A stretch of DNA of 64,000 nucleotides from Patescibacteria group bacterium (GCA_023379025.1 JAMCTH010000003.1:169259-233258); one strand, 5' to 3'; shown: positions 1,547-32,609, numbered from the stretch's first letter. The notes: generated by a model from the sequence alone, not told the origin. A program made the numbers and translations.

Positions 1547-2947
1547 CTATAAACCAATTTCTAATCTCTTAAGCGTTTCCTCTTTCCCCAAAATTTCCAG
1601 CGATTCGAGAAGTGGCGGTCCGACGGTTTTCCCCGTGACCGCAACCCTGATTTCCATAAAGAGATCCCTTGCCTTGATACCCGCCTTTTCCGAAGCGCTC
1701 CTCACTGCCCGCTCCATCGCTTCATGATCCCAATCCGTCATCTCCAGTGCCTTTTTCCCGATGCTCAGGACATCCGCTGCGAACGGCCGTTCAAATCCTT
1801 TCGGCCGCTCAAAGAAAAACCCTGCCAGAGAACGGTATTCCTTAAGCGTACTCATCCGCTCCTTCACGAGAGGGATGGTACGTGAAACCAGGGAGTGTTC
1901 GAGTGTTCCTATAGAAGCATCAAAAGCAACAAGCCGCTCATGCAGCTCTTTATCATCAAGAGCACGGATGTACTGGCCGTTCACCCAATCGAGCTTTTTA
2001 AGGTCAAACCTCGGAGCCTGTGAACCGATGGACCGGATATCGAAAAGCCGGATAAACTCGGCAAGCGGATATATCTCCTTCCCTTCCGGATGATGCCAGA
2101 CGATATTGGAAAGGTAGTTAAGAACCGCTTCCGGCAGGTAGCCGCCTTTCCGGTAATACTCGACGGATGCATGGCCGTGCCGTTTGGAGAGTTTCCCCTT
2201 CCCGTCTTCGTTGAGGATGAGGGGCAGATGCCCATGAACCGGCATATCCCATCCGAAGTACCGGTAAAGAAGGACATGTTTCGGCGTGGACGAGATCCAT
2301 TCCTTGCCGCGGAATACATGGCTTATCTCCATGAGGTGGTCATCGACAACCACCGCCAGATGGTACGTCGGATATCCGTCAGATTTTAAGATAACCTGGT
2401 GATCGATGACATCGCTGTCAAATTCAATATGGCCGGCGATCAGATCGTCAAATGCGATCGTTTCATGTTCAGGCACCTTCATCCGTATGACGTACGGTAT
2501 ACCGTCTTTAAGCCTGGCACGAACTTCGTCTGCCGTCAGCTTCAGACAGGTTTGGTCATACATCGGCGGCTGATGGTTTTTTTCCTGCGTTTTCCGCATC
2601 TCATCCAGGCGCCCGCGCGTACAAAAGCAGTGATAGGCATACCCTTTCCCTATCAGGGAGTCGACATATTTTCTATAAAGGGGAAGGCGCTCCGACTGAC
2701 GGTACGGCGCATACGGACCGCCCACTTTCGGACTCTCGTCCGGCGCGAGACCGAACCAGGCAAACGCATCGTAGATAATCCCTTCCGCGCCCTCCACAAA
2801 CCGTGCCCTGTCCGTATCCTCCAGCCGCATGACAAACTGTCCGTGGTTCTGGCGGGAAAAGGCAAAATCAACAAGCACCTGGTAAATCGTCCCGATATGC
2901 GGAAAACCTGTCGGAGAAGGAGCGATTCTTGTGCGGACGGTGTCCAT
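1547..2947 (-). CDS. gltX: Glutamyl-tRNA synthetase (class I)
   Basis: HIGH-type motif PTGFPHIGT and KMSKS-type motif KLSKRHG. Start trimmed to MDTVRTRIAPSPTG. The upstream part of the track ORF has no homology. Confidence 0.85.
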   Translation of the reverse strand: MDTVRTRIAPSPTGFPHIGTIYQVLVDFAFSRQNHGQFVMRLEDTDRARFVEGAEGIIYDAFAWFGLAPDESPKVGGPYAPYRQSERLPLYRKYVDSLIGKGYAYHCFCTRGRLDEMRKTQEKNHQPPMYDQTCLKLTADEVRARLKDGIPYVIRMKVPEHETIAFDDLIAGHIEFDSDVIDHQVILKSDGYPTYHLAVVVDDHLMEISHVFRGKEWISSTPKHVLLYRYFGWDMPVHGHLPLILNEDGKGKLSKRHGHASVEYYRKGGYLPEAVLNYLSNIVWHHPEGKEIYPLAEFIRLFDIRSIGSQAPRFDLKKLDWVNGQYIRALDDKELHERLVAFDASIGTLEHSLVSRTIPLVKERMSTLKEYRSLAGFFFERPKGFERPFAADVLSIGKKALEMTDWDHEAMERAVRSASEKAGIKARDLFMEIRVAVTGKTVGPPLLESLEILGKEETLKRLEIGL

Positions 2948-2992
2948 AGTTACATTGATTCTACCATCACCTTCTCCTATACTCAAAGAAGA

Positions 2993-4048
2993 ATGGCTTC
3001 TCTCACCGAAACTGCTTACTATACGAGACGCACCATCAACTGGCTGATCCTTGCCGTCATCGCGTATTTTCTCCTCAGGATCTTCTGGAGCATGTTTGTT
3101 GCCGCATGGCTTATCCTTTTTCCTCCGAAAGCCCCTCCCCCGAACCACAGGTTCGGGAAACTTCCCGCGCTCGTATTTCCGCCGGTGGCGTCAGGCTCGG
3201 CAAAACTGAAATTCTCCCTCCAGACGATCCAGGGAGACCTGCCTGCCGCATCGGCATCCGCCAATGTCTATCTCATGCCCAAGTCTCCGGCAAACCTACT
3301 CGCTATGCCCAATACCCAGGCCTTTGCCCAGCAGCTCAAATTCGACCCGACGCCCATACAGGACACCAAGGATATATTTCACTTCAATGATCCGGCGTTT
3401 CCGCTCCGGACGCTGACCTACAACATCGTATCGGATAATTTCCGGCTGTTTTATGACTTCACGAAAGAACCGAGCCTGTTTAACGACCATGCGCTCCCAT
3501 CGACCGATGAGGTGAAAACCGACGCCATAGCCCAAATGCAGAACCTCAGTATCTATGTTCCGGATCTGAAACTCGGCACCAGGAGCGTATCGTTTCTCCG
3601 CTATATCAACAGCCAGCTCATGCCCGCGACGAGTCTTTCCCAGGCGGACGCAGAACGCATAGACTTTTTCCGTCAGGAAGTCGGAGACACGAAAATTCTC
3701 CCTCCCGATCCGGATGAAGGTTCCGTATACCTCATATACTCGGGCTCTTTGACATCCCAAAAACAGCTTATTGATTTTACCTACCGCTTCTGGCCGATCG
3801 ATTATGAAACCTACGGCACGTATGCGCTCAAAACCAGTTCCCAGGCATGGCAGGATCTTCAGGGCGGCAGAGGATATATCGCGCGCTACCCCAACAACGG
3901 CTCAACGACCGTAACCGTCCGGAACATCTACCTTGCATACTACGACAGCTATGATCCGGAGACGTATCTCCAGCCGATCTTCGTCTTTGAAGGAGACTAT
4001 GGATTTATGGCTTATGTGCCGGCTGTGGATCCTGCCTGGACGGAATGA
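2993..4048 (+). CDS. Hypothetical membrane-anchored protein (N-terminal TM helix, large extracytoplasmic domain)
   Basis: Start chosen at MASLTETAYY... where the hydrophobic stretch INWLILAVIAYFLLRIFWSMFVAAWLILF begins. The first approx. 200 codons of the track ORF overlap gltX antisense and are discarded. No recognisable family. Confidence 0.45.
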   Translation: MASLTETAYYTRRTINWLILAVIAYFLLRIFWSMFVAAWLILFPPKAPPPNHRFGKLPALVFPPVASGSAKLKFSLQTIQGDLPAASASANVYLMPKSPANLLAMPNTQAFAQQLKFDPTPIQDTKDIFHFNDPAFPLRTLTYNIVSDNFRLFYDFTKEPSLFNDHALPSTDEVKTDAIAQMQNLSIYVPDLKLGTRSVSFLRYINSQLMPATSLSQADAERIDFFRQEVGDTKILPPDPDEGSVYLIYSGSLTSQKQLIDFTYRFWPIDYETYGTYALKTSSQAWQDLQGGRGYIARYPNNGSTTVTVRNIYLAYYDSYDPETYLQPIFVFEGDYGFMAYVPAVDPAWTE

Positions 4049-5183: not shown

Positions 5184-7088
5184 TTACGCGGCTTCGCGGG
5201 AAAACGAACCGACAACGGGACGGGCGACGTTTTCGTAAGACTTCTCTGCCATGGAAACGGATTTGGTATGGAGACCCGCGTTAAAGACGATCGTATCGTT
5301 TTTCCGGACGGCATCATCCATATAGAGCGGCACGTCGAATATATGGCCGAACGGCGGTACGGCGCCGATTGGGACGGATGTAACCCGAAGCACCTCATCG
5401 GGTGTCGCCATACGGAGGTCTTTTATTCCGTAAAGTTTTTTGAACGCATGCATGTCTATTTTCCTGTCTCCGGGAAGTACGACCATGAGCGGCTTGCCGT
5501 CACCGTAAAGAAGAATCGCCTTGGCACCGGCAGAGAGAGACGTATGTCTCACGTCCGCCGCTTCCCGGGATGTCGTAACGGCTTTATGTTCATGCGTCTT
5601 GTATTCACTATGGCCCTCGTCCAGAAGCTGTGTGATCGTCCTATACACAGATTCCCCGCCGGTCTTCTTTTGGGAAACGACAGAAATTCCAAGCTCTTTA
5701 AGTTGCCCGTCCGACGCCTGACTCGGCGCATCCATGACGCTCGTCTGCCCTCCCGCTGAAGCGGGAAATGCCATAACCTCCCGAATGCTCGGTTCACCAA
5801 GAGCAGTAAAGAGAAAACGGTCTATCCCCGGCGCGATGCCGCCGTGCGGCGGGACTCCGTACGTAAACGCCGTCAGCATATGGTCAAACTGTGCTTTCTG
5901 CTCTTCGGTAAACCCGATAAGATCAAATACTTTTTCCTGGACGTGTCTCTCATGAATTCTTATGCTTCCCCCGCCGACTTCATAGCCGTTCAGGACCATG
6001 TCGTGCTGCAGTCCCCGGACCTTCATGGGATCGGTCTCAAGAAGCGGTATGTCATCCGGATGCGGAGCGGTAAACATATGATGCGACGGCGCAAACCTCG
6101 CTTTTCCCGATCCGTGATAGAAGTCTTCTTCTGATTGCTCGGTAAAGAGCGGAAAGTCGACTGTCCACGCAAATGCAAGCTCATTGGGGTCTTTTTTATC
6201 GCGCCGCAGGTCCGGCTTATCGGTGCCATAGCGGGCAATCGCTTCCTTATGAGGGATCCTGGGCCAGGGAGTCTCGGTAATGTGTTTTTCCGGAAAAAGT
6301 TCCCCGACAAGCTTCGTAAACAGATCTTCGGCCAGAGTTAAAATATCTTCCTGGGTGACAAACGACAGCTCCATATCCAGCTGCGTAAACTCTCCGTACG
6401 CCCGGTCTTTTCTGGGATCCTCATCGCGGAAACATCGCGCAAGCTGAAAGTAGCGCTCGAGTCCGGCAACCATCAGGAGCTGCTTGTACTGCTGGGGAGA
6501 CTGCGGAAGCGCATAAAATTTCCCTTTCTGGAGGCGCGAAGGCACGATGAAATCCCTGGCCCCTTCCGGCGTGGTTTTTGTCAGAATGGGCGTTTCCACC
6601 TCGACAAAATCACGCTCGGTGAGGTAATTGCGGATAAAGGTGGTCATGCGGGACTTGAGACGGAGGTTTCTTGTCATGCGGGCGCGCCGGATATCGAGAT
6701 ACCGGTATTTCATCCGGATTTCCTCGTTTACCTCATAGCCGTCGGTATCGATAGGAAACGGAAGCTCCCTGGCTTTGCTGATAACCGTAAGTTTTTCTAC
6801 TTCAACTTCCACCTGTCCCGTCGGGATCTTGGGATTTACCATGGAGGCCGGACGCTCCTTCACGACCCCGGTGACTTCGATGACTGCTTCCGGCCGGGCT
6901 TCCGACAGGGTCTGACCACGCTCGCTTTTAAGGTCTGACCCTGAATAAACAAGCTGGACGATCCCCGAGCGGTCACGGAGGTCAAGGAAGGTGATTTTCC
7001 CATGATCCCGGCGGGTAGTCACCCACCCCTTTAGGATAACTTCCTCACCGACCTTTTTGACTGTTTCAACCGCTAGCGTCCGCTTCAT
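5184..7088 (-). CDS. aspS: Aspartyl-tRNA synthetase (short archaeal/ND type, no GAD insertion) fused to a C-terminal YbaK/ProX-like aminoacyl-tRNA deacylase domain
   Basis: Class II motifs FRDEDPRKDRAYGEFTQLDMELSF and GGGSIRIHE...GIAPGIDRF. Canonical AspRS C-terminal end MAFP...QLKELGISV. A further approx. 165 aa (YRTITQLL...KAILLYGDGKPLMVVLPGDRKIDMHAFKKL...SVPIGAVPPFGH...IVFNAGLHTKSV) has a YbaK-like pattern. Confidence 0.8.
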   Translation of the reverse strand: MKRTLAVETVKKVGEEVILKGWVTTRRDHGKITFLDLRDRSGIVQLVYSGSDLKSERGQTLSEARPEAVIEVTGVVKERPASMVNPKIPTGQVEVEVEKLTVISKARELPFPIDTDGYEVNEEIRMKYRYLDIRRARMTRNLRLKSRMTTFIRNYLTERDFVEVETPILTKTTPEGARDFIVPSRLQKGKFYALPQSPQQYKQLLMVAGLERYFQLARCFRDEDPRKDRAYGEFTQLDMELSFVTQEDILTLAEDLFTKLVGELFPEKHITETPWPRIPHKEAIARYGTDKPDLRRDKKDPNELAFAWTVDFPLFTEQSEEDFYHGSGKARFAPSHHMFTAPHPDDIPLLETDPMKVRGLQHDMVLNGYEVGGGSIRIHERHVQEKVFDLIGFTEEQKAQFDHMLTAFTYGVPPHGGIAPGIDRFLFTALGEPSIREVMAFPASAGGQTSVMDAPSQASDGQLKELGISVVSQKKTGGESVYRTITQLLDEGHSEYKTHEHKAVTTSREAADVRHTSLSAGAKAILLYGDGKPLMVVLPGDRKIDMHAFKKLYGIKDLRMATPDEVLRVTSVPIGAVPPFGHIFDVPLYMDDAVRKNDTIVFNAGLHTKSVSMAEKSYENVARPVVGSFSREAA

Positions 7089-24706: not shown

Positions 24707-25498
24707 TCAACTGGAAGCAGACGCATATTGTCCCAGTGCAAAGCGCCATACCCTGAGCGATACGGCGATACTGACCGCGCCGATCACAAGAGACAGAACG
24801 ATACCTCCCGGCGTAAGAAACCCCATGAGGGCCTTTGCCGGAAAGGTCATCATGACGCCGACAGGCAGGACAAACGTAATGATGCTGCGGAGCGGTTCCC
24901 GATAGATATCAACCGGCAGCCTGCCCATGTTCGTCAGGTCTCGATACATCATGACCATATGATCGACCTCCGTCGTCAGTATGGCCAGGGCAAGGACGAC
25001 AATATGAAACGCCGATGCGATGACAAACGCATTGATAAGAAGCGCTATATAGAGCACCACGCCCACGGGATCGACCGCAGGGAGCGAACGGGCGACAACG
25101 ACCAGCGCCGCGACATAGGGAAGGAGCATGAAAAGATCAAGCGGATCAGCGCCGCCCGCAAGCGCCCGGAAGAGGGCGTTCATGGGTTTTGTGAGCACGA
25201 GATCAAAGTCACCGGTGACGATCAGTTGACGGAACCGGTAGACTTCACGGAACACAAGCTGTGTGACCGTATCAATGAGATTGAATGTGAGGTAAAAAAA
25301 CAGGGCCTCGGTAAGAGAATAGTGCGCTATACTCTCGGTTTTTCTGAAGAGTGCCCAGAGAAATACGCTAAAAAGTAAAAACCTGGCCATCTTTCCCACG
25401 AGGAATATCGCGGCACTCAGCCGGGACGAGAGCACCGAGATAAAGGAATGAACGGTCAGTATCTCCCAAAGCTTGAAATAGCGTTGTATCGTCCGCAT
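24707..25498 (-). CDS. ABC-2 family transporter permease (paralog B')
   Basis: 6 TM helices. C-terminal ...VWRFALGQYASASS mirrors 29838..30623 (...WRFALRFYTSASN). Start at MRTIQRYF. Confidence 0.6.
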   Translation of the reverse strand: MRTIQRYFKLWEILTVHSFISVLSSRLSAAIFLVGKMARFLLFSVFLWALFRKTESIAHYSLTEALFFYLTFNLIDTVTQLVFREVYRFRQLIVTGDFDLVLTKPMNALFRALAGGADPLDLFMLLPYVAALVVVARSLPAVDPVGVVLYIALLINAFVIASAFHIVVLALAILTTEVDHMVMMYRDLTNMGRLPVDIYREPLRSIITFVLPVGVMMTFPAKALMGFLTPGGIVLSLVIGAVSIAVSLRVWRFALGQYASASS

Positions 25499-25503
25499 AA
25501 TGG

Positions 25504-26295
25504 TCACCGTCCCTCCGCTGTATAGACCCGCAGTCCCCGCCTCCACAGGGTGTCGGCGGCCAACCGAAATACGGCGACCCAGACAATCCCGACCAGAAAT
25601 GCCGAAGCGACTGACTGCCACGGGATAGCGCCGAGATATACCCGGAGAGGAACATAAATAAAATAGGAAAACGGCATGGCAGTGGTCAACAGATAGAGAG
25701 GTTTCGGAAGAATATCGAGAGGGAAAAGCATCCCGGCAAAAAACTCCGTGATGACGAGAGTAAGAAACCGCGGCGCCCAAACATCAGGAGTCCAAAAACC
25801 GAGAAGCGACAGAATGAGGCTGAAATGAAAAAAGAGCACCATACCAAGAAGAAGCAACAGAAACGAGGTAACAAGGATGATCGGATTTGTCTGGATAAAC
25901 ACCTCCGGCCGGAGAAGGAAGACGAGGAGCGTAATTTCGACAACCGCACATCCTGCATTAAGGAGCTTGTCTGCCGCATCCCGGCAGGCAATATACCGGA
26001 AAAACCCGAGAGGTTTGGTGAGATAGTTAGACAGGGTTCCGTCGTTTATCATCACCCCTACCTCCTGGGTTCTCGTCCCCATGACAAACGGACGCACGAA
26101 TGAAGAGAGCAATACATAGGTAAGCATCATGCCCTCACTGTATCCGAACAACGTCGTTCGGCCGGAGAAAATCGCCCACCAGAGAAAATAAGTGACCAGA
26201 AGCTGGATGTTGACCCGTACCCGCCAGAGGAAAAAGCTCAGCCGGTAGGCCATATATTCCGCCATAGTTCCTTTGATTATCTGCAAAAACTTCAT
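25504..26295 (-). CDS. ABC-2 family transporter permease (paralog A')
   Basis: 6 TM helices. N-terminal MKFLQIIKGTMAEYMAYRLSFFLW is similar to 30627..31439 (MKYVRMFLLHFEQAFEYRSRNLVWFL). Confidence 0.6.
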   Translation of the reverse strand: MKFLQIIKGTMAEYMAYRLSFFLWRVRVNIQLLVTYFLWWAIFSGRTTLFGYSEGMMLTYVLLSSFVRPFVMGTRTQEVGVMINDGTLSNYLTKPLGFFRYIACRDAADKLLNAGCAVVEITLLVFLLRPEVFIQTNPIILVTSFLLLLLGMVLFFHFSLILSLLGFWTPDVWAPRFLTLVITEFFAGMLFPLDILPKPLYLLTTAMPFSYFIYVPLRVYLGAIPWQSVASAFLVGIVWVAVFRLAADTLWRRGLRVYTAEGR

Positions 26296-26427
26296 ACCTC
26301 TTTTCCTGACGCGTCCCGGAGTTTTCTGAGACGGCAATCATCTGATACCAAGTTTAGCAAAAAATATCAATCGCCGGGGTGAATCGCTATGAGCGTCTAT
26401 CAGTCAAATAGTATACAATGAAAACAC

Positions 26428-28608
26428 ATGATCTCACCTGTGGTTCTGCATATTAAAGTCCCCAGGGAAAACACAAAAGGCCCGGTAGCCATGGAGGGCG
26501 TCTATGACGGCCTTGATGAACTGTTTCGCCACGAACAGACACCAGTCGCTTTTGAAATAGTTCTCAAAAACGGATTTCTGTATTTTATTGTTGTTTGCGA
26601 GCGCAGGGTAGTTGATCTGGTACGTGGACAATTATATTCCCAGTACCAAAATCTTGAGCTTGAAGAAATTTCTGATTACTCTGGCACATTCTTTGCCTGG
26701 CCAAGCATTACAACACTCACCCTCAAACGACCCCATGCTTATCCGCTCCGCACCTACCGGAACCTCCCGAACGATTTTCTGACGAATCTCTCGGGGATGG
26801 CCACTTCCGTCGGCAAAAACGAATCTGCAGCAATACAGATTATTCTCCGAGCAATAGATGCCGATTCCTTGTCCTTTAAATCGGAACGGTTTTTGGAGAC
26901 TTCGTGGAGATCAGCACTCAGAAAAAATTCATCACTCCGTGAACTTCTGGAAGAGGAGGAAAGGAAAAAATTGCAAAAATCTTTATTTCGCGCAACTATA
27001 CGCATTGCAACGGCTACAGGATCTAAATCCGATGCACTAGGCGCCTCGATCGCATCGTTATTTAAAATACTTGATAACGAACACTTAAACGAACTGAAAA
27101 TCTGGAATGTGTCCCATCGCACACAGACGGCGGAGGAGTATAAAAGCCGCGTCATGACCAAGAATCTTCTCCTGTCTTCCGAAGAACTGGCAACAATCTA
27201 CCACTTTCCCTATTCCGGAGCAAATATATCGCAGGTCGCCGTCTCAAAAACTAAAATGGCAGAGCCTCCGACTAATCTTCCGGTATCACCTGAGGCCATC
27301 CCATTTGCGGTCACAAACTTCCGCGGCAGCGCTACTCAGTTCGGCATAAAACGTGAAGACAGAAGAAAACATCTGTATATCATCGGGAAGACCGGTGTCG
27401 GCAAAAGTAAACTCATAGAACTTCTGGCTCTTGCTGACATCCGTGAAGGCAAAGGATGCGTCATCATGGATCCGCACGGCGACTTGGCAGAGGAGCTCCT
27501 CCGTTACATCCCGCGGGAACGGCTGTATGACATCATCTATTTTAACCCGGCAGACCGCGAGTATCCCATGGGATTTAATCCGCTGGAGAGTGTCGGATCG
27601 TTCGAATACAGACAAAATGTGGTTGCCGGATTCATCGCGATATTCAAAAAACTTTTTGGCTTCACCTGGAATCAGCGGCTCGAACATGTCCTACGGTTCA
27701 CTACACTCGCACTTCTCGATGTACCCGGTACGACCGTACTCGGAATTACCAAAATGCTTTCTGAAACGGATTACAGGCAGGAAATTGTCGCACAAATTCA
27801 GGATCCTCTGATCAAAAAATTCTGGACAACAGAATTTTCGTCCTGGAATGAGCAGTACGCCGGTGAAGCCATAACGCCGGTCATCAATAAAGTCGGACAA
27901 TTCGTCGCGAATCCGCTCATCAGAAATATTGTTGGACAGGGAAAGAGTACCGTAAAAATCGACGAGCTGATCAATAATGAAAAAATTGTCATTGCAAATT
28001 TTGCGATCGGAAAACTCGGAGAGGAAAACAGTGCACTTCTCGGCGCCATGTTCATAACGAAACTCTGGCAGGCGGCAGTGGCCAGGGCATCTCTCCCCGA
28101 AGGGGAACGAAAAGACACGTTCCTCTATGTCGACGAATTTCAAAACTTTGCAACCAGCGCCTTTGCCAATATCCTTTCAGAAGCAAGAAAATACAAACTG
28201 AACCTTACGGTCGCTCATCAGTATATGATGCAACTGCCCGAAGAAGTGCGGTCTACCGTCTTCGGAAATGTCGGATCGATTATTGCCTTCCGAGTCGGCG
28301 GCGAAGATGCTTCCGTACTTGAAAAAGAATACAGTCCGACATTCTCATCTCAGGATTTTATGAATCTCGATATGAGAAATTTCTATATCAAGATGACCAT
28401 CGACGGTCAGACAGCGCTCCCGTTTTCCGGAAAAACACTCGATTTCCCCAAACCTGACGCAGATCTCCTGACGGATGTCGTACGGATCTCGCGGGAACGC
28501 TGGGCACACCCAAGAAGCGACGTTGAACGCGAACTTATGTCTGATACGGAAACTCCTTCTCCGGCACCTGAAGCAAAGGCGCAAACATTCTCCGAACCTA
28601 TTATCTAA
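26428..28608 (+). CDS. FtsK/HerA-superfamily P-loop ATPase (VirB4/VirD4/TraG-like coupling-type ATPase), 726 aa
   Basis: Approx. 300-aa N-terminal domain with no TM. Walker A HLYIIGKTGVGKSKL followed by DPHGD. Walker B FLYVDEFQNF. ARKYKLNLTVAHQYMMQL motif (RKYG-like) typical of TraG/VirD4/HerA ATPases. Confidence 0.6.
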   Translation: MISPVVLHIKVPRENTKGPVAMEGVYDGLDELFRHEQTPVAFEIVLKNGFLYFIVVCERRVVDLVRGQLYSQYQNLELEEISDYSGTFFAWPSITTLTLKRPHAYPLRTYRNLPNDFLTNLSGMATSVGKNESAAIQIILRAIDADSLSFKSERFLETSWRSALRKNSSLRELLEEEERKKLQKSLFRATIRIATATGSKSDALGASIASLFKILDNEHLNELKIWNVSHRTQTAEEYKSRVMTKNLLLSSEELATIYHFPYSGANISQVAVSKTKMAEPPTNLPVSPEAIPFAVTNFRGSATQFGIKREDRRKHLYIIGKTGVGKSKLIELLALADIREGKGCVIMDPHGDLAEELLRYIPRERLYDIIYFNPADREYPMGFNPLESVGSFEYRQNVVAGFIAIFKKLFGFTWNQRLEHVLRFTTLALLDVPGTTVLGITKMLSETDYRQEIVAQIQDPLIKKFWTTEFSSWNEQYAGEAITPVINKVGQFVANPLIRNIVGQGKSTVKIDELINNEKIVIANFAIGKLGEENSALLGAMFITKLWQAAVARASLPEGERKDTFLYVDEFQNFATSAFANILSEARKYKLNLTVAHQYMMQLPEEVRSTVFGNVGSIIAFRVGGEDASVLEKEYSPTFSSQDFMNLDMRNFYIKMTIDGQTALPFSGKTLDFPKPDADLLTDVVRISRERWAHPRSDVERELMSDTETPSPAPEAKAQTFSEPII

Positions 28609-29513
28609 TTCAGGTACTGAAAACCCGGATAAAACGACGTCATCACTTCTGATACCGTTCTCGTATATTCCTCCGGCGTATACTGCCTGTTCAAAATACA
28701 GTTCTTTGCGTGGGAAAGTTCCGCACATCCGAAACAATTGTGACAGTCAACGCAATTAGCAAGAAACGCGCTGTCATAACAATTACTCGACCAGTCCGCG
28801 AACCTGCAATTGTAGAGCTTTGAAGAGTCGCGACACTCATAACATAGTTCGACCTGGGCGCATTGCGTCAGATCGTAGGAGTTTTTACAATAAAAACTGT
28901 CGTATAGGTAGCCGCAGTCTTCGTCATGGGCCGCGTCGTAACAGAGATAGAGGTTTAATGCGTAGTGGACATGATTCCCGTAGCTGCTGTTCTCCGAATG
29001 GGTGACATTGGACGGTCCAAAGGGATATGTTCTAATGAGATTTTTAAGATCGAGAAGATTCTGATCGGAAGGACGGGCAAGAAGCCCGGCAAGCCGTCTC
29101 TTATATTCTTCCTGGGTATATTGCCTGTTACATATACAATACTGCTTCTGCCTGAGATGCGTGCACCCGAAGAGATCATGGCTGTCTATACAATCCCAAC
29201 AAAAATGGCTGTCATATATCCTGGCACAGTAGTCGAGATATGTACTGTTGTATGCTCTAAGACAATCAACACACCCGTAAAGCTTCTCGCAATCCACATC
29301 ATAATCGCCGTCAACACAGTCAACACACCGTACGCTGTCGAAAAGATACAGGCACCGTTTATTATATGCGCAGTCAAAGGTATAGTAGCAGTCCGCAGAA
29401 TGATAGGTGTATCCGGTATAATCGCAATTTTCGTTATCGATATTCCCGGTCGGAGGCCGTGGGAGCGATCGCCGAAGCATGCTATATGCTGAAAGAAAAT
29501 CGGTGAACGTCAT
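28605..29513 (-). CDS. Cysteine-periodic repeat protein (approx. 36 Cys in 303 aa, C-x8-C / C-x2-C register, two half-repeats)
   Basis: Start at MTFTDF, 4-nt overlap with the upstream zinc-ribbon gene. Repeated units such as CGYLYDSFY/CKNSYDLTQ/CRDSSKLYN/CRFADWSSN/CYDSAFLAN/CVDCHNCFG. Both halves end in LRQKQYCICNRQYTQEEY / NCILNRQYTPEEY. No signal peptide. No family recognised. Confidence 0.55.
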   Translation of the reverse strand: MTFTDFLSAYSMLRRSLPRPPTGNIDNENCDYTGYTYHSADCYYTFDCAYNKRCLYLFDSVRCVDCVDGDYDVDCEKLYGCVDCLRAYNSTYLDYCARIYDSHFCWDCIDSHDLFGCTHLRQKQYCICNRQYTQEEYKRRLAGLLARPSDQNLLDLKNLIRTYPFGPSNVTHSENSSYGNHVHYALNLYLCYDAAHDEDCGYLYDSFYCKNSYDLTQCAQVELCYECRDSSKLYNCRFADWSSNCYDSAFLANCVDCHNCFGCAELSHAKNCILNRQYTPEEYTRTVSEVMTSFYPGFQYLN

Positions 29514-29800
29514 TTTTGGAGAATATCCGTCGTATCGTAATACTGCCGGTAACACGTCTGGCAGAGGATTTTTGCCGAAACCGTTGCAGGATCGTACGTC
29601 GTCACCATGGCCGCACCGCACTGTTGACAGGTCGTCCGGAATAATTTACGCTCCCCCCGTCCCCGCAGACGCCGGAGCTGCCGGTCTGATGGACACAGTG
29701 TCGGCATTGGCAAATTCATTTTTTTAAGAAATTCCTCCTCCTGGGATATCACAAGAAATTTCTGACCGCAGGACGCACACACGTGGGTAGTATCTGCCAT
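29510..29800 (-). CDS. Small zinc-ribbon protein (three CxxC pairs)
   Basis: Start at MADTTHVCASCGQKF. Further CxxC at TCQQCG and LCQTCY. 96 aa. Directly downstream of the permease gene, translationally coupled to the next gene. Confidence 0.45.
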   Translation of the reverse strand: MADTTHVCASCGQKFLVISQEEEFLKKMNLPMPTLCPSDRQLRRLRGRGERKLFRTTCQQCGAAMVTTYDPATVSAKILCQTCYRQYYDTTDILQK

Positions 29801-29837: not shown

Positions 29838-30623
29838 TTAATTGCTGGCGCTTGTGTAGAACCTGAGCGCAAAACGCCAGAACTTCCGGGAAACAAGAAA
29901 CAGACCGACCGCTACCCCCATAAGAAGCGCCGCATCCTGCCAGCGCGCATGGGAAAGAAAAATTTTTGCCGGAATATTGATGATAAGCGTAAAGGGAAGG
30001 AAAAAAACGAAGATATAACTTGCCAGCTGATGCAGCATTTCCGCCGGATACCTTGCCGCACCCGTTACGGAAAACATGAGCTCCGTCAGATTCGAGAGTC
30101 TCGTATGCCAGATCGTAACGGTAATGACAATAAACCAGAGCGAGTAAAGGGTCAGGAGACTAAAGATCATGATCCCGGCAATCGGAAGAATATTCCATAC
30201 GGTCGGAATGATATGGAGAATCCCGGCAATATACCAGGTGTACGCCAAAGCGATAAGGACGCGGGAAAATGTGGCGTATCCGACAAGCCAGAACGTCAGG
30301 AGGAACTGCGAATCGATCGGTTTCACGAGGATGCTGTCAAGCTGCCCGAAATGAATAATTGTAGAAAATCGCTCGAAATTTCGAGAAAAAAATACATGGT
30401 AACAACCGATTATGATACCGTAAAGACCATTGAGAAGCAGCAGCTCATCACGACTCCACCCGAAAACAACCGTTATTTTTGATGTCAGCAATACAATGGA
30501 AAAAAGGGAAAACAATCCCCACGCCACGCTAGACACAAGACTGTTTAAAAAATGAGCGCGGTAGATAAGAAGTGCCGAAAAATTCAGCTCCAGAAGTTTT
30601 TTGTATACACGGATATATCTCAT
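29838..30623 (-). CDS. ABC-2 family transporter permease (B)
   Basis: 261 aa, 6 TM. 4-nt spacing from the upstream permease. C-terminal RFYTSASN. Confidence 0.6.
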   Translation of the reverse strand: MRYIRVYKKLLELNFSALLIYRAHFLNSLVSSVAWGLFSLFSIVLLTSKITVVFGWSRDELLLLNGLYGIIIGCYHVFFSRNFERFSTIIHFGQLDSILVKPIDSQFLLTFWLVGYATFSRVLIALAYTWYIAGILHIIPTVWNILPIAGIMIFSLLTLYSLWFIVITVTIWHTRLSNLTELMFSVTGAARYPAEMLHQLASYIFVFFLPFTLIINIPAKIFLSHARWQDAALLMGVAVGLFLVSRKFWRFALRFYTSASN

Positions 30624-30626
30624 ACG

Positions 30627-31439
30627 TTACTGACCGATGCCGGTAAAGAGCCGGAGTCCGGTAACCCAGAGTTTTTTGTAACAGAGTAACAGGGTAATCA
30701 GCCATACGATCTGTATCGCGATCACCCTTACGGCATCCCAGCCCAAAAGATTGCCTTCAAGCGCCATCACGGGATAATAGATCATATAGGCAAACGGCAG
30801 TATCTCGGCAAGTGTCCTGAGCAGGGGGTGAAAAAACTGTACAGGTATCACGAACCCGGCAAAAACCATGAATATGACGGTCACGAGCTGCTCGAAACCG
30901 CTGTAATCGGTCATCCAGAGGGCAGACAAACCGACGATCATCTTAAACACAAACGAAAGGAAATACGCGATCACACCGGAAATCCCGGCGACCACGAGGG
31001 CAGCCGGAGCCGAAGCCACATGCAGAAACGAACCGAACGACACAAGAAACCCCGCAAGGATTACAACTCCGAATGCACCCTGGATCACCCGCCACGGAAG
31101 TTCTTCATAAAACTTGATCCAGAAATAGGAAAAGGGACGGAGCAGATATTTCACGAGACCCCCTTCCTGGATATCGTGCCGTGCGACGTCTTCCTCAACA
31201 TGCACGGTAAGGAACGCCCCGGCAAAAATCAGGAGAAAATAGTAAGAGGTAATCTCCGAAAATGAGAGCGGCATCCCCGTAAGCTTTCCGCCCGCATACG
31301 CCGCCCGCCAAAACAGAAGGTAGAGAAGCGGGTTAAGAAGCTCCACGAGAAACCAGACGAGGTTTCTGCTCCGGTACTCAAATGCCTGCTCGAAATGGAG
31401 AAGAAACATGCGGACATATTTCATACAATGAAATCGCAA
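30627..31439 (-). CDS. ABC-2 family transporter permease (A)
   Basis: 270 aa, 6 TM. Follows the ABC ATPase. Confidence 0.6.
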   Translation of the reverse strand: MRFHCMKYVRMFLLHFEQAFEYRSRNLVWFLVELLNPLLYLLFWRAAYAGGKLTGMPLSFSEITSYYFLLIFAGAFLTVHVEEDVARHDIQEGGLVKYLLRPFSYFWIKFYEELPWRVIQGAFGVVILAGFLVSFGSFLHVASAPAALVVAGISGVIAYFLSFVFKMIVGLSALWMTDYSGFEQLVTVIFMVFAGFVIPVQFFHPLLRTLAEILPFAYMIYYPVMALEGNLLGWDAVRVIAIQIVWLITLLLCYKKLWVTGLRLFTGIGQ

Positions 31440-31607
31440 AACTCAAATCCCAAATCTAAAAGTTATCTCAAATCTCGAAAAGATATTGTTCGAACGCACG
31501 TGAGAACTTCTCGCGAAGTTTACCTCGAGACTTCTCGCCGAGAGGCTCGAAGAATAGGCTTGGAGATGGCTTCTCAATTTGTCGGAAGATAGGAATATAT
31601 CCATTGG

Positions 31608-32609
31608 TCATTGGTCCGCCGGTTGGCGGATGAGATTTGAAGCTTTCAAAAAAACATCCCTGATAATGTCTTCGATATCCGGTTCTTCGATATTGAGGTC
31701 CTCTACGGGAAAATCCTGCAATAGCTCCGCTGCCGCGACGTTGCTTGCGCTTCTCGGCACACGGATGACGGCATGGGGAAAATTGTACTCCGCAAGCTCT
31801 CCTATGGATCTGAATTTATCCGGCGCGATATAGGTATCGAGGACTACGGACAATACCTTATATTTGGCAAATTTCCGGACGAGCTGATCGAGTTTTCCGT
31901 CATAAAGGATCTTGCCGTGATCAATGATGATCACGCGACGCGCCAATTGACGTACGTCTTCCATATAGTGGGACGTCAGAAGAATCGTTGACTTGTGGAG
32001 TTCGTTATATGACTGTATGAAGTCACGCATCTTTTTCTGCATGACCACATCAAGTCCGATGGTCGGCTCGTCGAGAAACAAAACCTTCGGGGCATGGATG
32101 AGCGCCGCGATCAGTTCCATCTTCATCCGTTCACCGAGGGAAAGCTTCCGCACCTGAACTTTAAGGAGCGGCTCAACGTCCAGAAGTTCGACGAGTTCCC
32201 GGAGTGTCTTTTTGTAAGCATCATCCGGAATTTCGTATATCTCCTTATTGAGAAGGAAAGTCTCGAGAGCCGGCAGGTCCCACCAGAGCTGATTCTTCTG
32301 CCCCATGACCAGGGCGATCTGCCTGAGGTAGGCATTTTTGCGCTCATACGGGGTGTATCCGAGCACCCGGACCGCACCGCTTGTGGGGTACAGTAAGCCC
32401 GAAAGACACTTGAGAGTCGTCGTTTTTCCTGCGCCGTTCGGACCGATAAAACCAACCAATTCCCCTTCACCGATAGTAAACGAGATATCATTGACCGCCT
32501 GCACGGTCTCATACTGCCGTGCGACCAGCGACCGGACGGATCCCAAAAATCCGGGTTCCTTCCGGTGCACCTGATAATACTTTTTGAGATGAGCAAGAGA
32601 TATAACCAT
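31608..32609 (-). CDS. ABC transporter ATP-binding protein
   Basis: Walker A GPNGAGKTT, signature LSLGERMK, Walker B LFLDEPT, H-loop. 333 aa with a C-terminal extension. Confidence 0.85.
   Translation of the reverse strand: MVISLAHLKKYYQVHRKEPGFLGSVRSLVARQYETVQAVNDISFTIGEGELVGFIGPNGAGKTTTLKCLSGLLYPTSGAVRVLGYTPYERKNAYLRQIALVMGQKNQLWWDLPALETFLLNKEIYEIPDDAYKKTLRELVELLDVEPLLKVQVRKLSLGERMKMELIAALIHAPKVLFLDEPTIGLDVVMQKKMRDFIQSYNELHKSTILLTSHYMEDVRQLARRVIIIDHGKILYDGKLDQLVRKFAKYKVLSVVLDTYIAPDKFRSIGELAEYNFPHAVIRVPRSASNVAAAELLQDFPVEDLNIEEPDIEDIIRDVFLKASNLIRQPADQ

Follow-up and report, generated by a model that had tools for sequence, protein, structure and literature searches.

Introduction

Pentapeptide-repeat proteins fold as right-handed quadrilateral beta-helices with five residues to a side, 20 to a coil and a core of Leu and Phe, and some of them are DNA mimics; Csp1 and Csp3 are all-alpha, Cys-lined four-helix bundles whose conserved Cys bind Cu(I). 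The antifreeze protein (AFP) of the beetle Tenebrio molitor (TmAFP, structure 1EZG) is a right-handed beta-helix built from the 12-residue coil TCTxSxNCxxAx, in which C2, S5, C8, and A11 face inward and C2 and C8 form one disulfide per coil (PMC8038014), and this 12-residue sequence has been reported as unidentified in AFPs derived from fish, plants, fungi, and bacteria (PMC8038014). Here we analyze a gene for a Cys-rich protein, referred to as the target, that lies in a stretch of 64,000 nucleotides from a Patescibacteria group bacterium (GCA_023379025.1 JAMCTH010000003.1:169259-233258; "the window" means this whole stretch, and positions are counted from its first letter). By sequence comparison the target forms the core domain of a family of proteins, so far unnamed, from the Candidate Phyla Radiation (CPR). 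The family is large, undescribed, and CPR-wide, and its fold, as predicted by modeling, would be a variant new for bacteria. We propose, with moderate confidence, that the protein is a narrow double solenoid packed with Cys that acts together with a zinc-ribbon partner as a binding scaffold; this confidence is carried mostly by the structural part of the proposal, and everything said below about function is conjecture.

Results

The target open reading frame (ORF) starts with an ATG at 29513 and stops at 28605-28607, and its product begins MTFTDF. A first-pass annotation, generated by a model from the sequence alone, had placed the ORF at the correct coordinates and left out the strand, which is minus. 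The frame error that it had named as a possible refutation is excluded by 60 close relatives and by a matching layout of start and stop in independent metagenome-assembled genomes (MAGs), and the ORF is real. The protein contains 28 Cys (9.3%), 33 Tyr, 28 Asp, 28 Leu, and 20 Asn, with an isoelectric point of 4.96, a net charge of about -15, and a grand average of hydropathy (GRAVY) of -0.50. Judged from the N-terminus MTFTDFLSAYSMLRRSLPRPP, which lacks a hydrophobic core, there is no signal peptide or transmembrane segment, and relatives of the target carry zinc ribbons at this end; the protein is cytoplasmic-looking, as had been supposed. The lone CxxCH motif (CVDCH, residues 254-258) and the missing signal peptide together rule out a multihaem c-type cytochrome, in agreement with the first reading.

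Successive Cys are separated by 12, 6, 6, 9, 3, 9, 6, 3, 12, 9, 3, 9, 9, 2, 63, 9, 9, 9, 6, 3, 9, 9, 9, 3, 3, 3, and 9 residues, every gap being a multiple of three with the sole exception of the step from 126 to 128. In the first half a single mod-3 register takes in 14 of the 15 Cys (P ~6.5e-6), and in the second it takes in all 13 of 13 (P ~1.9e-6); solenoid 2 has Cys at ten successive positions spaced by nine, 191+9k (191, 200, ..., 272). Compared by hhalign, half 1 (residues 20-145) and half 2 (residues 160-290) align with a probability of 100% and E 5.2e-49 over 125 gap-free columns, and each half terminates in the motif NRQYT(Q/P)EEY. Judged from this alignment, the two halves are clearly a tandem duplication of a module of ~140 residues. 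The strict 3n spacing, the two internal half-repeats, and the shared terminal motif had all been recognized in the first-pass annotation, and all were recovered here.

The repeat period was examined by mean-field direct-coupling analysis (DCA) of 420 non-redundant family sequences (<80% identity). Of the 150 strongest couplings, 56 lay at a separation of exactly 12, including 41-53, 52-64, 64-76, 89-101, 100-112, and 112-124 in the first half and 172-184, 186-198, 201-213, 226-238, 247-259, and 258-270 in the second, and mean coupling plotted by separation showed a sharp peak at 12 in both halves (Table 1) with smaller peaks at 3, 6, 9, 11, and 24. An initial AlphaFold2 (AF2) model made from 59 sequences was poor in the repeats, with a predicted local distance difference test (pLDDT) score of 52-65, and was discarded. 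A second model, made from a 100-sequence alignment that included distant members, reached a pLDDT of 80.5 (87-95 in the repeats) and a predicted template modeling (pTM) score of 0.71, and its secondary structure by DSSP read "E-- EEE EEE E--" four times across residues 198-245, with 12-periodic beta-bridges. From the coupling peak at 12 together with the 12-periodic DSSP pattern, each half is predicted to be a narrow parallel beta-solenoid of ~8.5 coils of 12 residues. A 9-residue coil and an RTX-like 18-residue roll were excluded by the coupling peak at 12, and a left-handed hexapeptide helix and a polyproline-II bundle were rejected since the inward rhythm is 3 rather than 4 or 2 and the inward residues are not Gly. 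Foldseek comparison of the model with PDB, a check that the first-pass annotation had suggested, returned right-handed parallel beta-helix proteins only, and these weakly (best E 3.5e-4, probability <=0.3). The likeness to insect antifreeze proteins proposed at first reading therefore stands for the 12-residue coil and the small inward residue at every third position, and falls for the 9-residue ladder, the coupling maximum being at 12 and not 9; spacing by nine is a real sequence trait of the subfamily of the target and not its structural repeat, which has three residues to a side and 12 to a coil.

Each coil would be four-sided, with one tripeptide to a side whose last residue is directed into the bore; the inward positions of solenoid 1 are the multiples of 3 from 30 to 126. 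Such a bore would admit small side chains only and would be filled mainly with Cys (38%) and Ser (18%), with Leu, Val, Ile, Ala, and Gly spaced among them, and the strict 3n spacing of the Cys would follow from every third residue facing this narrow space. The middle residue of the tripeptide is often Asp or Asn and probably forms the corners, and the outer surface would be acidic and rich in aromatics; all family members (100%) have solenoids of net negative charge (median -11). Where Cys recurs every nine residues on a 12-residue coil it would step back one side at a time, and the thiols would describe a spiral staircase. Residues 1-27, with a short helix at 3-7 in the AF2 model and weak couplings 6-262 and 19-252, are probably a cap or packing element. 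The linker between the solenoids contained helices at 134-145 and 149-160 in the first AF2 model and no helix in the second, where its pLDDT was 61-72.

Within the core domain 95% of family Cys fall at inward columns, whose composition is C 0.38, S 0.18, L 0.11, V 0.06, G 0.05, A 0.05, I 0.05, and T 0.04, with His outside the 12 commonest residues. Cys-rich columns recur at every third position through both repeat regions and exchange with Ser, Ala, Leu, Val, Ile, Gly, and Thr, and the Cys positions drift, with Cys/Ser swaps even among orthologs of 55-69% identity. Cys stacked on one another (gap 12) co-occur positively, with a mean phi of +0.12, as do those on neighboring sides of a coil (gap 9, +0.07; gap 3, +0.05), and Cys on opposite sides (gap 6) avoid each other (mean phi -0.10, observed/expected 0.81). 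Among core-only proteins, 138 in all, 45% had an even number of Cys (p = 0.27 against 50%). Disulfide pairing was rejected on these parity and gap-6 tests, and the disulfide ladder offered in the first-pass annotation is not supported by these data or by the missing signal peptide. Summed over a turn, the volume of the core side chains is less variable than in shuffled sequences (variance ratio 0.63; below shuffled in 92% of half-domains), and therefore large residues are spaced out, as a tight core predicts. Most of the Cys are most likely small hydrophobic residues packing the core of a cytoplasmic protein in which the thiols are presumably reduced.

A few Cys may have a more specific role. 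The best conserved lie at the last coils, where C117/C263 are nearly invariant, followed by C108/C254 and by C126/C272, the last pair being His in some members, and one putative Zn site at each conserved solenoid end (C105/C108/C117/C126 and C254/C263/C272) is plausible, each serving as a candidate cap. Columns 99, 102, 111, and 114 co-vary as Cys in distant members with CxxC-x8-CxxC geometry; the target has I, S, S, and L there, and a site that some lineages possess seems to have given way to packing in that of the target. Discrete Zn(Cys)4 sites along the bore were considered and rejected, the corner, layer, spiral, and ladder quartets being enriched only mildly or through subfamilies (median observed/expected 1.3).

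The family is far larger than the immediate relatives of the target. A database search returned 60 close homologs (E 5e-210 to 4e-21), of which 55 have 292-311 residues and 32-69% identity over ~97% of the length; none of the 60 has a Pfam domain or an informative name. When 1.84 billion cluster representatives were searched with a profile, 3,668 matched at E<=1e-3 and 1,132 at E<=1e-30, and the family comprises at least 3,668 clusters at 50% identity. At least 586 family loci were found, almost all named as CPR lineages, and the 79 genome loci examined are nearly all from MAGs so named, with Peri-/Peregrinibacteria, Gracilibacteria, Saccharibacteria, Microgenomates, and Parcubacteria groups represented; the best match among them is a Gottesmanbacteria MAG (62% identity). 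Homologs in CPR metagenomes, which the first-pass annotation had proposed to look for, thus exist in abundance, and the family is almost entirely CPR. The target ORF scores 461.8 bits against the family profile (built with the target included) and fits it over the full length, with both half-modules, both FGC...C...N-x-Q-Y-x-x-E-E-Y caps, and the invariant N129/N275 and C117/C263. No Pfam, NCBIfam, or PADLOC model matches the target even at E<=10, no Pfam zinc finger matches the core, and the family profile matched no PDB sequence at E<=10. A literature search found nothing on the family, on PF13451/zf-trcl, or on the related Campylobacter phage protein discussed below.

Same-strand tandem arrays are frequent, with up to 7 divergent paralogs in ~13 kb (loci L060, L064, and L072). 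Further arrays occur at L058, L057, L043, and L031; loci L011 and L012 belong to the same observation, as does one MAG (MFD09206.bin.2.20) with at least 5 separate family loci; such arrays are a large investment for very small genomes. The target is the single copy of its family within the window, where it is surrounded by housekeeping genes (SecY, EF-G, RecJ, SecD, and RNase Y), and the locus is therefore chromosomal. Searched by tblastn against phage and plasmid collections the target had no match, and there is therefore no sign of gene mobility.

Table 1. Features of the target gene, its predicted protein segments, and its two neighbors in the window.
Feature	Position (nt)	Strand	Basis and remarks
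Target coding sequence, 302 residues + stop	28605-29513	minus	ORF list, translation, 60 close homologs
N-terminal segment, residues 1-27	29433-29513	minus	Conserved F6, L13, P18 in alignments A1-A4
Solenoid 1 (predicted), residues 28-129	29127-29432	minus	~8.5 coils x 12; pLDDT 87-95, 12-periodic DSSP, mean coupling peak at 12 (0.82)
Cap motif 1, NRQYTQEEY, residues 129-137	29103-29129	minus	N129 invariant; preceded by conserved FGC117...C126
Inter-solenoid linker, residues 130-173	28995-29126	minus	Low confidence in the better model; P164 invariant in A1/A2
Solenoid 2 (predicted), residues 174-275	28689-28994	minus	Duplicate of solenoid 1; mean coupling peak at 12 (0.61)
Cap motif 2, NRQYTPEEY, residues 275-283	28665-28691	minus	N275 invariant; preceded by FGC263...C272
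Upstream partner ORF, 96 residues, basic zinc ribbon (zf_Tbcl + zf_Tbcl_2)	29510-29800	minus	Pfam
ATGA overlap of zinc-ribbon stop and target start	29510-29513	minus	Read from sequence
VirD4/type IV coupling protein (T4CP)-like P-loop ATPase, 726 residues	26428-28608	plus	Convergent; 3' end overlaps the target stop by 4 nt

The ORF directly upstream of the target scores 29.7 bits against PF13451 (cut-off 24) and E 2.3e-5 against PF23477, and its product has an isoelectric point of 8.9. The ATGA overlap between the two genes suggests translational coupling. In most of the distant relatives, which have ~420 or ~555 residues, zf_Tbcl and zf_Tbcl_2 (PF13451 and PF23477) form an N-terminal domain of ~105 residues on the same chain, often with a C-terminal extension of ~150 residues that holds a second such pair. 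The zinc-ribbon ORF aligns end to end with residues 1-96 of one fused protein, P0063 (43% identity, E 4e-26), and the target aligns with residues 106-398 of the same protein (E 5e-71); an association with zf_Tbcl/zf_Tbcl_2, whether fused or as an upstream gene, is thus present for the target also. Because the two-gene layout, adjacent or overlapping, recurs in several CPR classes (L001-L010 and L023), the split is, on this comparative evidence, a genuine fission (or the fused forms are fusions) and not a sequencing error. The target and the zinc-ribbon product would then act together as a two-chain version of the protein that their relatives make as one.

On the other side, the target is met by the convergent VirD4-like gene, whose product matches TrwB_AAD_bind, DUF87, and T4SS-DNA_transf in Pfam and conju_CD1115 in NCBIfam (5e-16). 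The split subfamily has 12 loci, the window included; in 11 of them such an ATPase gene adjoins the core gene and converges on it, and the twelfth (L009) ends at the core gene. Across the family, 26 of 80 loci have a T4CP-like gene no more than 6 kb away. The link to the ATPase is real for the split subfamily, and partial rather than general. Members of the conserved CPR group to which this ATPase belongs (in the window, L001, L003-L008, L010, L023, and others) share a C-terminal tail F-x-E-P-[ILM]-[IVM], and many have an N-terminal membrane helix that is absent from the window and L001 copies. The window ATPase also matches phrog_5156 (E 1.5e-68), with relatives gp156 of Bacillus phage G and gp27.4 of SPO1, all of unknown function. 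Another recurrent neighbor is a TrmB-family regulator of ~250 residues, present in 23 of 80 family loci, which usually diverges from the array and stands on the opposite strand, directly upstream of arrays or inside them (L027-L031, L049, L052-L054, L057, L059, L061, L065, L071, and L073); it may be a regulator of the arrays.

Other features of the window are noted briefly. Two sets of ABC-2-type permease genes (ABC2_membrane_6) flank the locus on the minus strand, at 29838-32609, including an ABC ATPase at 31608-32609, and at 24707-26337; ABC-2 transporter genes are not conserved neighbors in related family loci. A minus-strand gene at 5184-7088 joins a class II Asp/Asn/Lys-type aminoacyl-tRNA synthetase to a C-terminal YbaK-like editing domain (Pfam tRNA-synt_2 + tRNA_edit), which looks like an unusual fusion. 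Long ORFs overlap on opposite strands at 2399-4048 (plus) and 1547-3148 (minus), and the 549 residues encoded on the plus strand match nothing in Pfam at E<=1e-5. No RNA gene of relevance was detected when the window was scanned with Rfam and for tRNAs.

Discussion

Patterns detected in this locus and its relatives favor a Cys-packed double solenoid that works with its zinc-ribbon partner as a binding scaffold. The reality of the gene, the duplication, the spread of the family, the relation of split and fused forms, the 3/12 periodicity of the covariation and of the model, and the Cys statistics are direct observations. Beyond these we would guess, tentatively, that a rigid double rod with an acidic, aromatic-rich surface is presented by the zinc ribbon or ribbons to a macromolecular partner, for which the neighboring VirD4-like ATPase would be the leading candidate in the split subfamily. 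Several observations weigh against this reading. On the structural side, the Foldseek TM score to solved beta-helices is ~0.1, and no solved structure superposes; AF2 and DCA share the co-evolution signal and are thus not independent; and couplings at the repeat period may partly reflect register shifts, though the length of the family is tightly conserved. The number of Cys is held high, with a median of 26-27 per core (range 12-39), which exceeds the apparent need for packing and hints at thiol chemistry. On the functional side, the ATPase and target genes are convergent, hence not co-transcribed, and when the association was examined in reverse, from 80 metagenome loci picked by similarity to the ATPase, a family gene was present in only 7, and in 4 of the 37 loci with at least 1.5 kb of flanking sequence on both sides.

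An alternative explanation for the many thiols could be a metal-thiolate device. Metal ions (Cu(I), Zn, Cd, or Fe/S) would then be bound in a row along the bore, to be stored, detoxified, or used in electron transfer, and the protein would do with a beta-solenoid what the copper storage proteins do with a Cys-lined bundle of four helices. The high Cys count, its concentration in one bore, the positive co-occurrence of stacked and neighboring Cys, the co-varying 99/102/111/114 set, and the Cys/His exchange at positions 126 and 272 would all be consistent with this, as would a Campylobacter phage relative (CPt10_1641) whose inward positions are nearly all Cys, more than packing alone would readily explain. 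Individual Cys are, however, weakly conserved and replaced by Ser, Ala, Leu, Val, Ile, or Gly and not by His or Asp; in 62 nearly gap-free sequences 57% of the coils have 0-1 Cys and only 9% have 3-4; four-Cys sets show just the mild enrichment given above; and a 12-residue coil, judged by TmAFP, is expected to be too tight for metal clusters. The dense metal-thiolate array of the first-pass annotation is therefore unsupported, and we regard a device of this kind as unlikely, albeit the most serious of the alternatives. Somewhat less probable still, in our judgment, is that the bore is a functional thiol channel, either a continuous metal-ion chain or a redox-active spiral of thiols or thiolates such as that formed by the ten 9-spaced Cys; were it true, these proteins would be beta-solenoid metalloproteins or redox proteins of a new class, one that has undergone massive expansion in the CPR. 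It is also conceivable that there is no solenoid, and that the core is a string of zinc knuckles or ribbons (CxxC...CxxC) each binding Zn, since CxxC pairs are frequent, the pairs 111-114 and 257-260 co-vary (phi 0.57 and 0.54), relatives are fused to true zinc ribbons, and the shallow AF2 model was poor in the repeats. Against this, the second Cys of the pair is mostly Ser in the target and many relatives, no CxxC quartet is conserved outside the caps, the fixed i/i+12 couplings along the repeat indicate parallel stacking and not the anti-diagonals of hairpins, and the deeper AF2 model is confident while no Pfam zinc finger was found in the core; we consider zinc knuckles improbable.

The least credible of the alternatives, which we would be very surprised to see borne out, is a disulfide-laddered solenoid of the beetle antifreeze type in an exported or oxidized protein. 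It would share the coil length and the in/out pattern (PMC8038014), and the GenBank record of the Campylobacter phage CPt10 lists weak matches of its related protein to PF02420, the insect antifreeze family; but beyond the avoidance between i/i+6 Cys and the even and odd counts already described, the target lacks a signal peptide or transmembrane segment and has no TxT face in its solenoids, and in most relatives zinc ribbons are fused on at either end of the chain. Lastly, the proteins could be cargo or effectors of a type-IV-like export system, a variable arsenal of paralogs recognized by the VirD4-like ATPase and passed to host cells. The recurrence of the T4CP-like gene in several CPR classes whose other neighbors differ, and the tandem arrays, would fit such a role, but the low yield of the reverse test, the lack of the N-terminal membrane anchor from the window and L001 ATPases, and the failure to find virB4 or channel genes among the scanned genes of the window speak against it, and a tightly folded, zinc-ribbon-capped rod would be an unlikely substrate for translocation. 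We find this doubtful, to about the same degree as zinc knuckles. The preferred reading thus remains a reduced, Cys-packed double solenoid serving as a scaffold.

This reading has several implications. To our knowledge, the solved beta-helices with a 12-residue coil all come from antifreeze proteins of beetles. Should the prediction be right, this thinnest type of beta-helix would cease to be peculiar to those insects and would be the fold of one of the larger uncharacterized families in CPR/Patescibacteria, with thousands of sequence clusters and up to seven tandem copies in 13 kb of genomes that measure roughly a megabase. It would be built there without the disulfides thought to stabilize the insect version, and would offer structural biologists a test case for the stability of a 12-residue coil in the reducing cytoplasm. 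CPR biology would gain a recognizable family, a zinc ribbon with a double Cys-solenoid. The family may also bear on the many VirD4-like genes of these bacteria, of which 2,918 Patescibacteria genomes hold 5,713, only 148 of them near virB4, and whose exaptation for other functions was left open by the authors (PMC12102498). The target family is a concrete candidate partner for some of these "orphan" ATPases, whose role is an open question (PMC12102498).

Among known systems the nearest are the fused CPR proteins with the order zf_Tbcl - core - (linker) - zf_Tbcl, called "hypothetical protein" in all sources. They have the core in common with the target, the alignment is end to end, and the two window ORFs are collinear with them; they differ in being single chains with a C-terminal zinc-ribbon extension, whereas the subfamily of the target has two genes and no extension. 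Outside CPR, a likeness is seen to the Campylobacter phage proteins CPt10_1641 and H6SUK4 of phage IBB35, which belong to phrog_15341 (function unknown) and share with the target period-3 Cys preceded by Asp, Asn, or Lys. The target matches phrog_15341 with E 6.7e-10 (residues 186-290 against profile positions 40-145 of 276) and a second family protein, P0101, with 5.8e-6, scores that Cys periodicity may inflate; Foldseek against BFVD matched the IBB35 homolog (probability 1.0; 85 columns, 22% identical), which could be partly an effect of composition. CPt10_1641 has 141 residues in one repeat run and differs from the target in lacking the duplication, the NxQYxxEEY cap, and the zinc-ribbon partner. 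Its sequence (locus L080, 1387-1812) is almost entirely period-3 CxxC, CKDCLNCFNCVDCYKCIDCIDC..., its gene is flanked by a helicase-like gene and a metallophosphoesterase, and it is the founding type of phrog_15341, mislabeled "CaiB/BaiF family" in phage IBB35. The phage likeness may be due to homology or else to convergence on a very simple repeat.

Pentapeptide-repeat proteins (MfpA, Qnr, and AlbG) are similar to the target in being four-sided beta-helices with a short repeat and Asp or Asn beside the inward residue, a description taken in part from PMC8145042, and in being cytoplasmic, acidic rods. Membership in that group was rejected: the periodicity of the target is 3 and 12 and not 5 and 20, it has no match to Pfam Pentapeptide, and its core is of Cys and Ser. 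The likeness to Csp1 and Csp3 is limited to many Cys facing the bore of an elongated cytoplasmic protein, and membership there was rejected as well, the target model being all-beta in its Cys regions, with fluid Cys positions and no match in Pfam, sequence, or fold.

The closest architectural parallel is with the beetle antifreeze proteins of Tenebrio molitor, Dendroides, and Dorcus, with which the target shares the 12-residue coil, the "out-in-out" tripeptide, and small inward residues (Cys, Ser, Ala); like TmAFP, each predicted solenoid would be a thin rod of ~6-9 coils. The differences are considerable. TmAFP has a strict Cys2-Cys8 (i/i+6) disulfide in every coil, whereas i/i+6 Cys avoid each other in the target family; it has a TCT ice-binding face, a signal peptide, a beetle origin, and a size of 8-12 kDa, none of which applies to the bacterial, cytoplasmic target family. 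In the target there is no TCT, and neither of the only two TxT sequences (residues 2-4 and 284-286) lies in a solenoid. Averaged over the target family, a turn has a core volume of 461 A^3, against ~395 A^3 computed for a TmAFP-like C+S+C+A turn, and, unlike TmAFP, the target has two solenoids per chain, an acidic aromatic surface, and a zinc-ribbon partner. PF02420 gave no match to the target at E<=10. Taken together, the target is not a member of the PF02420 family and, as far as the model can be relied on, resembles a TmAFP-type solenoid in architecture.

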